14,676 nt of DNA, from positions 1-14,676 of the IMG/VR virus record IMGVR_UViG_3300028490_000001; one strand, given 5' to 3'. The notes beneath the pieces were generated by a model, which was not told the origin of the DNA, did no database searches, and saw only the letters and a list, made by a program, of their open reading frames with translations. The position numbers were made by a program, and so were the translations under genes. Each line of letters starts with the position of its first letter. Within the stretch, counting starts at the first letter, position 1. Below are positions 2,843-7,944 of the stretch, piece after piece. This stretch comes from a virus. Its lineage: Duplodnaviria > Heunggongvirae > Uroviricota > Caudoviricetes > Schitoviridae.

Positions 2843-2913
2843 GTGGTGTATTGTGTAGACATACGGTAATCTAAATAGCTTACTGCCAAGTTTGAGTCTT
2901 GGACACCACACCA
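2843..2913 (+). ncRNA. Orphan non-canonical tRNA-like RNA (71 nt, encoded CCA, possible CUA anticodon)
   Basis: Perfect 7-bp acceptor GTGGTGT/ACACCAC + A + CCA; T-arm CCAAG-TTTGAGT-CTTGG; miniature D-arm; loop region contains T-CTA-AA. Confidence 0.65.
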
Positions 2914-3052
2914 CAGAACGACACTGTAGGATATTACTTAAATGTAGACACAGTGGTGCTTAGGCACAAAACTAGATGGGTGTATAACACCTCTATATAA
3001 ATTTTGACTTTGTGGGTGGGAAAGAAACCCTCAATTATACAAAGGAGATATT

Positions 3053-3127
3053 ATGTATAAAATATCTAAGTATGTGAGTATCTCACATGACGGTGGAGAT
3101 TTGTTTAAAGAAGGCGGAGACGCTTAA
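3053..3127 (+). CDS. 24-aa micropeptide
   Basis: Strong AAAGGAG SD; MYKISKYVSISHDGGDLFKEGGDA. Confidence 0.45.
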   Translation: MYKISKYVSISHDGGDLFKEGGDA

Positions 3128-3139
3128 TACTGTTATCAG

Positions 3140-3177
3140 TACACAGAGGTTGGAAAGGAATTTAAGACCTCTGTGTA
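3140..3177. repeat. Perfect 11-bp inverted repeat with 16-nt spacer
   Basis: TACACAGAGGT (3140-3150) / ACCTCTGTGTA (3167-3177). Confidence 0.85.
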
Positions 3178-3204
3178 GTGACAATAAAATAAAGGATTAA
3201 AAAT

Positions 3205-3381
3205 ATGACTATTTATATATGTACGCACGCACCAGGTGGTTCATTCTATTACAAAAAGGAAATATCAAATCCTAAAAACTACAAAGAACATATTGCACAA
3301 GGGAAAAGACTTACAAAGAAGTATGACGACTGGTGCTCAAATTTATTTGAATTGAAGAGAAGAAATAAGAACCACCCGTAA
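3205..3381 (+). CDS. 58-aa basic hypothetical protein (not in ORF track)
   Basis: AAAGGA SD; MTIYICTHAPGGSFYYKKEISNPKNY...RRNKNHP. Confidence 0.6.
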   Translation: MTIYICTHAPGGSFYYKKEISNPKNYKEHIAQGKRLTKKYDDWCSNLFELKRRNKNHP

Positions 3382-3409
3382 TCAACATTGGGGAGTAAAC
3401 CCTTCCAAA

Positions 3410-3503
3410 AATCTCTCAAAGAATCTCTCAACTCTAATCCGTTGAGCTTCAGATAATACTGACTGATAGACTTATAGAACAGCCATTCAATAATTAAGTC
3501 TAT
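3410..3503. repeat. Tandem AATCTCTCAA x2, short hairpins and a 9-bp inverted repeat
   Basis: AATCTCTCAA at 3410-3419 and 3422-3431; ATAGACTTA (3466-3474) / TAAGTCTAT (3495-3503). Confidence 0.7.
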
Positions 3504-3529
3504 TGGTGAGTAAAAAAGAAGGATAAGAA

Positions 3530-3670
3530 ATGAACGACCTAAATAATACAGCTATACATATAGCACAGATACAAGCAAACACTACTGTTGCAATTGCTGC
3601 CATAGCTGGTATAGTTATGCTTATGACTATAGGTGCATTCGTAACAACAAGAAAGCAGTCGTCACCCTGA
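3530..3670 (+). CDS. 46-aa single-pass membrane protein
   Basis: GAAGGA SD; hydrophobic VAIAAIAGIVMLMTIGAFV followed by RK. Confidence 0.6.
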   Translation: MNDLNNTAIHIAQIQANTTVAIAAIAGIVMLMTIGAFVTTRKQSSP

Positions 3671-3700
3671 CATTAACTGGTGCTGGAGGATATCACTTGG

Positions 3701-3829
3701 ATGTGGACGCAGCAGAGGGTGGATTCTTTCGCTAGATGTTTATTGCCATCCTCACATTATAGTAGCAATGCTTTAAATTGCAAACATAATTCTCATGTAA
3801 ATCTATTTATGATAGATAAACGTGGATAA
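3701..3829 (+). CDS. Possible 42-aa micro-ORF (may instead be structured non-coding sequence)
   Basis: GGAGGA 10 nt upstream of ATG; the region also forms several hairpins. Confidence 0.25.
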   Translation: MWTQQRVDSFARCLLPSSHYSSNALNCKHNSHVNLFMIDKRG

Positions 3830-3877
3830 AAAATTAACATAGAAATATGGAGTAGGGTGGAATCCCCTACACTAAAG

Positions 3878-3921
3878 CAGCCTAGGGTATAAGTATTAAT
3901 AAATTCATATACCCTAGGCTG
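3878..3921. repeat. Perfect 14-bp inverted repeat with 16-nt spacer
   Basis: CAGCCTAGGGTATA (3878-3891) / TATACCCTAGGCTG (3908-3921), preceded by hairpin GTAGGG/CCCTAC (3852-3870). Confidence 0.9.
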
Positions 3922-3939
3922 TGAAAAAACAGGATTATC

Positions 3940-4041
3940 ATGATAAGTTTAAAGAAAATAAGTGACATTCTTTTTATAGTAACGTCGGTTACTGTAATAG
4001 CAGTCGCAATAATAGTTATTCATAAAGGAGTAATTCAATGA
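3940..4041 (+). CDS. 33-aa membrane micropeptide translationally coupled to the ATPase
   Basis: AGGA SD; ILFIVTSVTVIAVAIIVI helix; ATGA overlap with 4038. Confidence 0.5.
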   Translation: MISLKKISDILFIVTSVTVIAVAIIVIHKGVIQ

Positions 4042-4733
4042 GTAGAAATAAAAAAGTTGTGTTAATAAATGGACCATCAGGTACAGGAAAAACATACTCA
4101 ATAAAAAAGCTGATAGATGCAGTAGGTAGCAAGGTTGCCTACATAAATCTCGATGGTAAAAGTAGACTTGGATTTAAGGGAAAGTCAAAGATTGCAAAAT
4201 TCATAACTCCATCTGACCCATTAGAGGTAAATGATGGTGTAAGAGCAATGGAAGAAAACCCTGATATAGAATATATCATCATTGATACATTATCATTCTA
4301 TTTGGACCAGCTTGAACAAAAGCATGTTATATTTGAACATGACTCTCAGGGAGCATGGGGTAAAGTTTATGCGGCATCGGTCAAAGACTTGCTACACTTC
4401 GCAATGAATGTATCGAAAAAATCATGGATATTCATGAGCCACACGCAAGAGGGAGAAGTTAAAGACTTCGTAACACCGACGAAAGCCTATGCAAAGGGTG
4501 CAGTTGGAAGACTAGGTGTAGAAGCTTACTTTGATACTGTGCTCTATACAAATGTATATAACGACACAGATGCTGAAGATGGAGTTGGATATAGATTCCA
4601 GACAAGAAAGACAAAAGAAACTAGAGGGCTATCTGTTAAGTCCCCAGAAGACATGTTCCCAGGTGTGTACACAAAAGAAAACGACATAATCGAAGTCTTT
4701 GACTACATAGATAAATACGATGAAGAAGATTAA
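4038..4733 (+). CDS. AAA-family ATPase, N4 gp44-like / Sak4-type single-strand annealing protein
   Basis: Walker A GPSGTGKT, Walker B YIIIDTLS, SH..E and EAYFDTVLY motifs; synteny with primase and SSB. Confidence 0.85.
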   Translation: MSRNKKVVLINGPSGTGKTYSIKKLIDAVGSKVAYINLDGKSRLGFKGKSKIAKFITPSDPLEVNDGVRAMEENPDIEYIIIDTLSFYLDQLEQKHVIFEHDSQGAWGKVYAASVKDLLHFAMNVSKKSWIFMSHTQEGEVKDFVTPTKAYAKGAVGRLGVEAYFDTVLYTNVYNDTDAEDGVGYRFQTRKTKETRGLSVKSPEDMFPGVYTKENDIIEVFDYIDKYDEED

Positions 4734-6995: not shown

Positions 6996-7035
6996 AATCC
7001 GAAGGTCGAGGGTTAAACTCCTTCCGTGTTCGCCA
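6996..7035 (+). tRNA. 3' half of the interrupted tRNA
   Basis: AA TCCGA AGGTC GAGGG-TTAAACT-CCTTC CGTGTTC G CCA. Confidence 0.85.
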
Positions 7036-7043
7036 AAAAAGAA

Positions 7044-7131
7044 GGTTCAGTGTTAGAGCGGTTTATTATTCTTCCTTGCTAAGGAAGTGAGGTGAAAGCC
7101 TCCATTGGTTCGAATCCAATCTGAACCTCCA
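7044..7131 (+). tRNA. tRNA-Ser(GCT)
   Basis: GGTTCAG/CTGAACC; CTTCC-TT GCT AA-GGAAG; long variable arm GAGGT-GAAA-GCCTC; TTCGAAT; CCA. Confidence 0.93.
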
Positions 7132-7136
7132 CCTTT

Positions 7137-7211
7137 TCTCGATTAACTCAGCGGTAGAGTGCTTCCCCGATAAGGAAGATGTCACTGGTTCAAGTCCAGT
7201 ATCGAGTACCA
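7137..7211 (+). tRNA. tRNA-Ile(GAT)
   Basis: CTTCC-CC GAT AA-GGAAG (C33); T-arm ACTGG-TTCAAGT-CCAGT; A73; CCA; 1:72 mismatch. Confidence 0.88.
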
Positions 7212-7218
7212 AACATAT

Positions 7219-7293
7219 CGCGGGATAGAAGACTGGTAATTCGCTAGGCTCATAACCTAGAGTACGTTGGTTCGAATCCAACTCCCGCCACCA
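7219..7293 (+). tRNA. tRNA-Met(CAT), initiator-like
   Basis: CGCGGGA start with C1:C72 mismatch; loop CT CAT AA; only two of the three initiator G-C pairs (A29-U41); CCA. Confidence 0.9.
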
Positions 7294-7302
7294 CATTAAT
7301 TA

Positions 7303-7387
7303 TGAGCCATGTCCCTATTGAGGGAGTAAAGCAACAGGAGTGTACATTACTGTTGTATAGTAATTGTCAAAAGATTCATGGCTCACC
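7303..7387 (+). ncRNA. Four-way-junction tRNA-like element
   Basis: 9-bp closing stem TGAGCCATG/CATGGCTCA; arms TCCCT-ATTG-AGGGA and GCAACAG/CTGTTGT; T-like arm AATT-GTCAAAA-GATT; ends ACC(T). Confidence 0.5.
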
Positions 7388-7392
7388 TTAAC

Positions 7393-7469
7393 GGACAGGT
7401 AGCTCAGCTGGTTAGAGCACTCAGCTCATAACCGAGTGGTCGCAGGTTCAAGTCCTGTTCTGTCCACCA
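7393..7469 (+). tRNA. tRNA(CAT), probably Ile2 (lysidine), otherwise elongator Met
   Basis: GGACAGG/TCTGTCC; GCTC-AGCTGGTTA-GAGC; loop CT CAT AA; A73; CCA; overall resemblance to bacterial Ile2 tRNAs. Confidence 0.9.
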
Positions 7470-7495
7470 AAAAATATAAACAAACGGAGGTAAAT

Positions 7496-7732
7496 ATGAA
7501 AATAGTAACAAATCAAAAAGAATATCATGCATCTGTAAGAGCATATGATGAAAACTGTATTGGCTGTAAAAACAATAATTCTGATGTAATGTTATCAGTT
7601 CAAATTGGAAATATACGAGAACCACATCCAACATCTTCAATGTTTAATGATATATTTATGACAAACGAAGAAGCATTAGCTATATCGGATGAAATACAAA
7701 AACAAGTGAAGCAAAATAAAGAAACAAAATAA
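7496..7732 (+). CDS. Hypothetical protein (78 aa)
   Basis: GGAGG SD before ATG 7496. The track start at 7436 lies in a tRNA. Confidence 0.7.
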   Translation: MKIVTNQKEYHASVRAYDENCIGCKNNNSDVMLSVQIGNIREPHPTSSMFNDIFMTNEEALAISDEIQKQVKQNKETK

Positions 7733-7741
7733 AGGAATACT

Positions 7742-7849
7742 ATGTCATTCATTAAGTTTGTAAAAACAAATATGAGTAAAAAAGTTTATACCAAAATGTT
7801 TCCAGTACACATAGCCGACAATAGTGGAGTATATCACCTCATAAAATAA
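7742..7849 (+). CDS. 35-aa micro-ORF
   Basis: AAAGGA SD; MSFIKFVKTNMSKKVYTKMFPVHIADNSGVYHLIK. Confidence 0.45.
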   Translation: MSFIKFVKTNMSKKVYTKMFPVHIADNSGVYHLIK

Positions 7850-7852
7850 CAT

Positions 7853-7944
7853 GGGGGAGTATGAAATAGAATGGTAGAAATACCTTAGCAAGGGCGCAAG
7901 TCCCAGCTTGACTTCAGGTGGTTTGATTCCACCCTCCTCCACCA
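7853..7944 (+). ncRNA. 92-nt alanine-identity tRNA mimic (tmRNA TLD-like)
   Basis: Acceptor GGGGGAG/CTCCTCC with G3:U70, A73, CCA; T-arm GGTGG-TTTGATT-CCACC; interior has two GNRA hairpins instead of D and anticodon arms. Confidence 0.7.

Follow-up and report, generated by a model that had tools for sequence, protein, structure and literature searches.

The closest described counterparts of the RNAs considered here are the non-decoding structured RNAs that phages T5 and T4 carry among tRNA and homing-endonuclease genes: the T5 annotation (NC_005859) places the tRNA-like RNA1, RNA2 and RNA3 among tRNAs and HNH genes, and the T4 annotation (NC_000866) places rnaC and rnaD, the species 1/2 RNAs, beside segB. 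Phage tRNAs also act in counter-defence, as do T5 tRNA-Lys/Thr/Asn against PARIS and the SegB-amplified T6 tRNA-Tyr against Septu. In plant-virus tRNA-like structures of the turnip yellow mosaic virus (TYMV) type, a pseudoknot stem bears NCCA, and the tRNA-like domain of tmRNA is an Ala-type acceptor without a normal D or anticodon arm. In N4-like phages, the interval from primase to virion RNA polymerase (vRNAP) is an anti-signalling hotspot inside which Acb4, Sequestin and other sponges are exchanged; the text of the paper describing it mentions tRNA 0 times (bioRxiv 10.64898/2026.06.04.730250). Here we analyse the first 14,676 nt of a phage genome (78.7 kb, ends overlapping); in this window, tRNA-like RNAs and a pseudoknot RNA ending in CCA lie between positions 2843 and 7944, in the neighbourhood of an Acb4-like sponge gene. 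From sequence and predicted folds, these RNA features appear to be real and selected, and they sit in a known anti-defence hotspot; they do not seem to form a dedicated module, and a decoy role is possible against enzymes other than those first proposed.

A preliminary description of the window had placed four non-decoding-looking cloverleaves (at 2843, 6188, 7303 and 7853) and a pseudoknot-CCA RNA in a single 5-kb stretch, read as a tRNA-mimic/decoy array. The RNA elements concerned are the following.

2843 to 2913, plus strand: top-half mimic with a 7-bp acceptor stem, a 4-bp mini D-hairpin, a central stem with variable loop, a T-arm and ACCA (fold, scanner).
2914 to 3127, plus strand: structured leader right after the 2843 CCA, then a ribosome-binding site and a micro-ORF (open reading frame) of 24 aa at 3053-3127 (fold z -3.5).
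6004 to 6187, plus strand: conserved non-coding RNA, a long hairpin followed by an H-type pseudoknot and G-CCA at the 3' end (comparison with relatives).
6188 to 6270, plus strand: top-half mimic adjoining the pseudoknot CCA with zero spacer (fold, scanner).
7303 to 7388, plus strand: multibranch RNA with a 9-bp closing stem and a weak T-like arm, ending in CCT (fold z -3.8).
7853 to 7944, plus strand: alanine-type top-half mimic (G3.U70, A73, CCA) occupying the slot directly before the leader of the single-stranded DNA-binding protein (SSB) gene (fold, scanner).
7950 to 7980, plus strand: conserved hairpin in the leader ahead of the SSB gene (comparison with relatives).

In three of the four proposed cloverleaves (2843-2913, 6188-6270 and 7853-7944) the acceptor stem is 7 bp long, the T-like arm has 5 bp and a loop of 7-8 nt, position 73 is A, and CCA is encoded. 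None of these three contains a T-Psi-C motif, only U54 and A58 being retained, and neither ARAGORN nor Rfam calls them. The 7303 RNA is weaker: its 3' end is C-C-T, not CCA, and its T-like arm has ∼3 pairs in the minimum free energy fold and 0 in the centroid, so the statement that all mimics keep a T-like arm fails for this element. None of the four combines the 5-bp anticodon stem and 7-nt loop, D-arm, T-Psi-C loop and tRNA-finder call of a decoding tRNA. The single array also needs qualification. The 6188, 7303 and 7853 RNAs lie inside it, but 2843 is 3.3 kb away with the Sak4 gene intervening; the homologues of 2843 in relatives L005 and L017 are inside arrays.

A search for an acceptor stem, a T-arm and NCCA in combination (the top-half scanner) returned 10 matches in the stretch, consisting of seven tRNAs plus 2843, 6188 and 7853, and none on either strand in the rest of the genome (78.7 kb); shuffled controls gave a mean of 0.014 matches per region, with a maximum of 1 in 500. 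Because a relaxed version of the scanner finds chance matches in coding DNA, only its intergenic matches with tRNA-like folds were counted. Among the loci compared (13 in the clade of this phage, plus 15 cultured phages), relatives carry further NCCA-ended mimics and minihelices with other sequences. By fold comparison, T5 RNA3 (acceptor, one hairpin, T-like arm and ACCA) shares the plan of 2843 and 6188. The 6188, 7303, 7853 and pseudoknot RNAs resemble the T5/T4 RNAs in being non-decoding elements within a phage tRNA array, and 2843, 6188 and 7853, but not 7303, resemble them in having an acceptor, a T-like arm and a 3' CCA. This likeness is one of fold; the sequence search, made with the pseudoknot RNA model (R1) alone, found no convincing match in T5, T4, N4 or Rexella. 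The window RNAs differ from the T5/T4 RNAs in lacking T-Psi-C and in including an Ala-identity form and a pseudoknot-NCCA form.

Whether these elements have been selected for their top halves or are products of random decay can be judged best for the 2843 family (window, L005 and L017). Across these three sequences all four helices pair in 96.8% of cells with 4 compensatory pairs, compared with 32-49% pairing and no compensatory pairs in slid controls, and no two copies agree in the length or sequence of the central ('anticodon') loop. Because the helices covary while the central loop changes freely, structural selection on the top half is supported for this family, by evidence that is direct but, with three sequences, modest. 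An amber-suppressor identity for 2843 was ruled out, as the loop is different in both homologues. The 7853 RNA has a probable homologue at L019:1306-1395 (nhmmer E 0.89, same slot type) in which G3.U70, A73 and the T-arm are kept and the interior differs; covariation in this two-sequence pair is not significant, and top-half selection is weakly supported. A sequence search of relatives detected no homologues of 6188 or 7303. The earlier proposal of selection over decay is thus upheld for the 2843 family and the pseudoknot RNA described below, weakly for 7853, and does not extend to 6188 and 7303.

The pseudoknot-CCA RNA was borne out. Its H-type pseudoknot occupies 6140-6183 (S1, 6140-6145 with 6164-6169; S2, 6156-6160 with 6179-6183), and GCCA comes next (CCA, 6185-6187). 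Pseudoknot and NCCA are found in eight of nine relatives, with stem sequences changed yet paired (each p<0.01 versus shuffles; three of these are identical in sequence), and in the ninth, L154, the RNA ends in CCT. The base before CCA varies among G, T and A, acceptor sequences vary as well, and the body ahead of the module is tRNA-like in several relatives whereas it consists of hairpins in the window. Rfam has no match for this RNA, finding only tRNA in the window and relatives, and on these comparisons it appears to represent an uncatalogued family whose hairpin-pseudoknot-NCCA module behaves as if it were a portable 3' extension. At L152:11089-11264, L153:4871-5040, L154:11543-11716 and L158:4737-4904, the module continues a tRNA-like body that has no CCA of its own. 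Pistol, hammerhead, twister and hepatitis delta virus-like ribozymes were rejected for the pseudoknot region, since the required helices are absent on inspection and Rfam gives no match; tmRNA was rejected because ARAGORN and Rfam do not match and a tRNA-like domain with pseudoknots and a tag ORF was not found. Compared with plant-virus tRNA-like structures and tmRNA, the window RNAs are encoded by a double-stranded DNA phage, lack an anticodon-like arm that bears a conserved triplet, have no tag ORF and are not matched by Rfam.

RNase P accepts top-half substrates. The reading that we tentatively favour is that the mimics are T5-type tRNA-like RNAs acting as host-processing signals. The hotspot would carry two independently exchanged cargoes, a nucleotide-sponge gene and a T5-type tRNA array; in the array, top-half RNAs that do not decode would be interspersed with HNH genes and with working tRNAs, some of which show evasion-type changes. 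Host RNase P would cleave at the 5' edge of each top half and 3' nucleases would trim back to NCCA, so that the top halves would punctuate a long transcript and set the 5' ends of downstream mRNAs, namely those of SSB and of the micro-ORFs after 2843. Processing of 6188 would also define the 3' end of the pseudoknot RNA, and the cleaved elements may persist as stable NCCA-ended RNAs that are unable to decode.

Element positions are consistent with punctuation. The 2843 RNA precedes a hairpin, a ribosome-binding site and a micro-ORF, and 6188 begins immediately behind the CCA of the pseudoknot RNA. In 12 of 13 genomes an acceptor stem with NCCA lies at most ∼10 nt from the SSB leader hairpin; the occupant of this pre-SSB slot is a real tRNA in seven genomes and a mimic or minihelix in five, and the tRNA-less L155 has a lone minihelix. 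Other structured elements occur in the intergenic DNA: strong hairpins lie amid micro-ORFs at 3125-3190 (z -7.3) and 3835-3930, for which no homologues were found, and two motifs occur throughout the clade (window 5877, 5887-5935 and 7950-7980; all relatives), a GTAAGTCC-like hairpin closure after stop codons and GAACCA...TGGTTC hairpins before genes, which are possible phage promoter or processing signals.

Several observations count against processing signals as the full explanation. Whichever element comes last in an array will adjoin SSB, so L155 alone testifies independently to the slot. Some mimics, several in number, stand between real tRNAs, where extra punctuation seems unneeded, and punctuation requires neither G3.U70, nor the conserved inner stems of 2843, nor a pseudoknot. 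Finally, sponges and arrays co-occur above expectation in the clade (8/0/2/3 across 13 loci, Fisher p 0.035), although these genomes share ancestry and each of the two features follows the accessory load.

The genomic setting was assigned from neighbouring genes. PHROG profiles give the order primase, Sak4-like AAA, SSB and RusA-like resolvase, then vRNAP on the opposite strand. Because this order matches the published interval, we identify the studied stretch, on gene content, as the primase-to-vRNAP hotspot: it lies between these two genes, contains Sak4, SSB and RusA/RuvC-like genes and has variable sponge genes. The earlier suggestion of an anti-defence neighbourhood thus agrees with the published anti-signalling interval (bioRxiv 10.64898/2026.06.04.730250), with the same borders and with exchanged sponge genes in both. 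What the present data add is a tRNA array inside the hotspot, here and in N4, KP8, IME11, cp20 and Rexella among the cultured phages, with mimics in several. The protein-coding features are as follows.

63 to 659, plus strand: C-terminal part of DNA primase (N4 gp43-like), left border of the hotspot (PHROG 2135, E 2e-26).
4038 to 4733, plus strand: Sak4-like AAA ssDNA-annealing protein (N4 gp44-like; homology and profile matches).
4746 to 5042, plus strand: sponge-fold protein of the Acb4 family (PF13876), its ligand pocket diverged (Pfam 39.3 bits, cut-off 27).
5044 to 5313, plus strand: mobile 89-aa protein (confident model, no PDB match).
5310 to 5519 and 5519 to 5827, plus strand: two small lipoprotein-like ORFs (weak LPAM_1 match, first only).
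7998 to 8654, plus strand: SSB (profile match).
8658 to 9236, plus strand: RusA-like resolvase (profile match).
9476 to 14620, minus strand: vRNAP-like gene forming the right border of the hotspot, with a product of 2340 aa in the genome (PHROG 2206).

The Sak4 protein is ∼33% identical to those of cultured N4-like phages and 60-87% identical to those of metagenomic phages, and the sequence indicates that the source is an N4-like phage of an uncultured clade. GTDB genome scans for a host link gave no match, and IMG/VR DNA-pattern scans gave only chance matches or loci already in the comparison set. ORFs resembling the lipoprotein-like pair occupy the equivalent place in relatives.

The gene at 4746-5042 is Acb4-like in its family profile and predicted fold, as first described, but its ligand pocket is not that of SPO1 Acb4 (PDB 9E4W), which shares PF13876 with N4 gp48. 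A profile of the Acb4-like relatives matches 9E4W (E 5e-5), a structure that phmmer with a single Acb4-like protein missed, and 9E4W is the top Foldseek match of the predicted model, confirming the Acb4 fold at the level of prediction. When the 3'3'-cGAMP (cyclic GMP-AMP) pocket residues defined for SPO1 Acb4 (10.1101/2024.12.30.630793) are mapped on the alignments, six of nine are clearly changed (K36S, F48H, E49K, Y57L, F62D and T70V), N63D touches a backbone contact, and V56 and I66 are retained; an SPO1-type pocket is thus not predicted from the sequence. The adjoining 89-aa protein is well conserved in unrelated phages, and related-looking ORFs in L004 and L012 adjoin sponge genes. It has only a weak Atlas lead to PGDYG and was not counted as a sponge, but is a candidate new anti-defence protein.

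Sponge type in the clade varies among Acb2/Tad1, Sequestin, Lockin, Acb4 and none recognised, and the sponge lies upstream of Sak4 in relatives but downstream in the window. An interchangeable sponge cassette (Acb2/Tad1, Sequestin, Lockin or Acb4) is seen just upstream of Sak4 at L152:9426-10017, L153:2418-3267, L154:8727-9382, L001:6814-7038 and L005:4439-5021. Depending on the genome, the pseudoknot RNA co-occurs with Acb4, with Acb2/Tad1 or with no recognised sponge. Arrays occur without a recognised sponge in L158 and L160, and both tRNAs and a recognised sponge are missing from L155 and L156. In LIT1 and Possum the interval contains neither a tRNA nor a mimic, although genes resembling N4 gp48/gp49 are present. 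In N4, KP8 and IME11 a mimic lies at most ∼0.8 kb from Acb4-type genes. The N4 hotspot contains four tRNAs and a 66-nt D-armless mimic ∼700 bp from gp48 (PF13876) and gp49 (DUF2829). This unannotated mimic (L188:8870-8935; NC_008720 ∼32869-32934) ends in ACCA, is kept in 65 phage records with covariation among four aligned sequences, and has a constant 7-nt loop with the palindrome GTGCAC; it belongs to a different family from the window mimics. The co-location of sponge and array is recurrent and worth noting. However, because sponge identity and position vary and arrays or sponges occur alone, there is no fixed partnership, and the proposed dedicated module of RNAs and Acb4 does not survive the comparison: Acb4 looks like a neighbour rather than a partner of the RNAs, and both look like independent passengers.

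The array itself contains seven tRNAs above threshold by ARAGORN and Rfam, which report nothing else in the window, and a split tRNA.

6273 to 6349, plus strand: tRNA-Gln(UUG).
6360 to 6436, plus strand: tRNA-Phe(GAA) with a Pro-like body and G37.
6447 to 6522, plus strand: tRNA-Asn(GUU).
6531 to 7035, plus strand: split tRNA-Trp(CCA), halves 6531-6564 and 6994-7035 (intact orthologue at L154:12225-12300).
6612 to 6992, plus strand: HNH gene in the tRNA-Trp cassette (PHROG 10822, E 1.5e-30).
7044 to 7131, plus strand: tRNA-Ser(GCU).
7137 to 7211, plus strand: tRNA-Ile(GAU) with C33.
7219 to 7293, plus strand: fMet-like tRNA(CAU).
7393 to 7469, plus strand: tRNA(CAU) of Met or Ile2 type.

The split tRNA is real, but it reads as damage and not as a mimic. 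The 429-nt cassette, which also contains a promoter-like site (6565-6592), is inserted between C34 and C35. A group I/II intron was rejected, as 381 of the 429 nt are ORF, no Rfam intron matches and there is no terminal G. Because the insert leaves no room for a ribozyme and HNH cassettes also disrupt tRNA genes in L003 and L005, leaving halves, the sequence is best read as homing-endonuclease damage. The altered loops noted earlier hold up in tRNA-Phe(GAA) (G37 on a Pro-type body) and tRNA-Ile(GAU); each of the clade's four Ile(GAU) genes has C33, and U2.U71 and U3.U70 acceptor mismatches are present in all three tRNA-Trp genes (window 6531-7035; L154:12225-12300; L160:5414-5489). The array thus resembles those of the T5/T6 counter-defence tRNAs in having homing endonucleases and altered loops, but those tRNAs are working replacements of cut host tRNAs, whereas the window mimics cannot decode.

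Further tRNA-like features were seen outside these elements. In Erwinia phage Rexella (L202:10523-12172) seven tRNAs, including a tRNA-Ile with C33, stand directly ahead of a RyR-domain gene in the hotspot. A second non-coding region of the present genome (L185; C1:59200-61100) has tRNA-like genes, one of which resembles Ile(GAU) and has a loop of 8 nt, and it scores weakly as YrlA-like. Another conserved family of tRNA-like sequences, represented at L005:5985-6058 and L152:11414-11488, has a short T-arm and a 7-nt loop that reads TTA where an anticodon would lie. A conserved structured RNA starting CAGTCCTAAG occurs at L153:4020-4150, L158:3930-4050, L019:1935-2035 and L017:1712-1790; it is absent from the window and has no Rfam match at gathering score. 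At L153:5824-7949 an intron-like insert with two HNH genes interrupts the SSB gene.

Other explanations of the mimics must be weighed against processing signals. Neutral or near-neutral debris of tRNA turnover, driven by HNH insertion and duplication, would account for the tRNA halves left behind by HNH cassettes, for 6188 and 7303 having no detected homologue and 7303 no CCA, and for an array content that is different in every relative. This is unlikely as a general account, given the compensatory changes in the 2843 family and the pseudoknot, the perfect acceptor stems and intact CCA ends on interiors unrecognisable as tRNA, and the retention and covariation of the N4 mimic; decay scores higher for 6188, 7303 and the split tRNA than for the other elements, and is already unlikely for 2843 and the pseudoknot RNA. 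The determinants recognised by alanyl-tRNA synthetase, G3.U70 and A73, are present in both 7853 and L019, and the pseudoknot RNA resembles acceptors of the TYMV type, in which NCCA is attached directly to a pseudoknot stem. The RNAs might then modulate host translation factors as aminoacylated carriers or sinks, with 7853 Ala-charged and bound by EF-Tu/SmpB and the pseudoknot RNA acting like a plant-virus tRNA-like structure. We consider this distinctly improbable: there are only two such sequences, in which tRNA-Ala ancestry could explain G3.U70 and A73, the discriminators and acceptors of the pseudoknot RNAs vary, and no tmRNA match was obtained.

The preliminary description had instead envisaged mimics that titrate anticodon nucleases (PrrC, RloC, VapC and PARIS) alongside Acb4 in a dedicated module. 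In favour of this are the closeness of the RNAs to Acb4 on the DNA, their place in the hotspot and the tendency of sponges and arrays to co-occur among related genomes. However, PrrC, VapC and PARIS cleave tRNA in the anticodon loop (PMC12851939), and in a model of AriB it is the anticodon loop and D-loop that the protein grips (PMC12409363). The mimics have lost the loops that these nucleases cut or grip, and with a sponge that is not fixed, gp48/gp49-like genes without RNAs in LIT1 and Possum, and arrays without a recognised sponge in L158 and L160, the dedicated module is very improbable. If the RNAs are decoys, effectors of the CCA end and acceptor stem are better targets. The RNAs may be trans-acting decoys for readers of acceptor stem, T-arm and CCA (the toxSAS enzymes CapRel and FaRel2, MenT/AbiE nucleotidyltransferases and Cas12a3), forming an RNA arm of the hotspot, which is a genuine if minority possibility. 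The conserved surface is the one that such effectors read, and FaRel2 is described as inspecting the acceptor stem and MenT as extending it. The anti-defence location, the co-occurrence of sponges and arrays, the closeness of mimics to Acb4-type genes in N4, KP8 and IME11, and the evasion-type C33 and U.U changes in real tRNAs point the same way. Against this, catalytic effectors would be hard to titrate with cleavable substrates, and the solutions that phages are known to employ are working tRNAs, either resistant or amplified (PMC11464382, PMC10264068, PMC13096335). A literature search of incomplete coverage found nothing relevant on phage tRNA-mimic decoys. The more specific proposal, that NCCA-ended top halves including the pseudoknot-acceptor RNA soak up toxSAS, MenT/AbiE and Cas12a3, which variant working tRNAs would not easily escape, is rather improbable. 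The processing and decoy readings are compatible and not mutually exclusive.

In the literature searched we did not find the tRNA array in the N4-like hotspot, the pseudoknot-NCCA family or the pre-SSB slot, nor any report of decoys against CCA-end defences. The T4 and T5 tRNA-like RNAs are still listed without a known job, and the presence of apparently selected top halves in a proven anti-defence hotspot, including that of N4, makes their role a tractable question. They may be either processing signals or RNA decoys against CCA-end defences, and the focus would accordingly move from anticodon nucleases to acceptor-end effectors.

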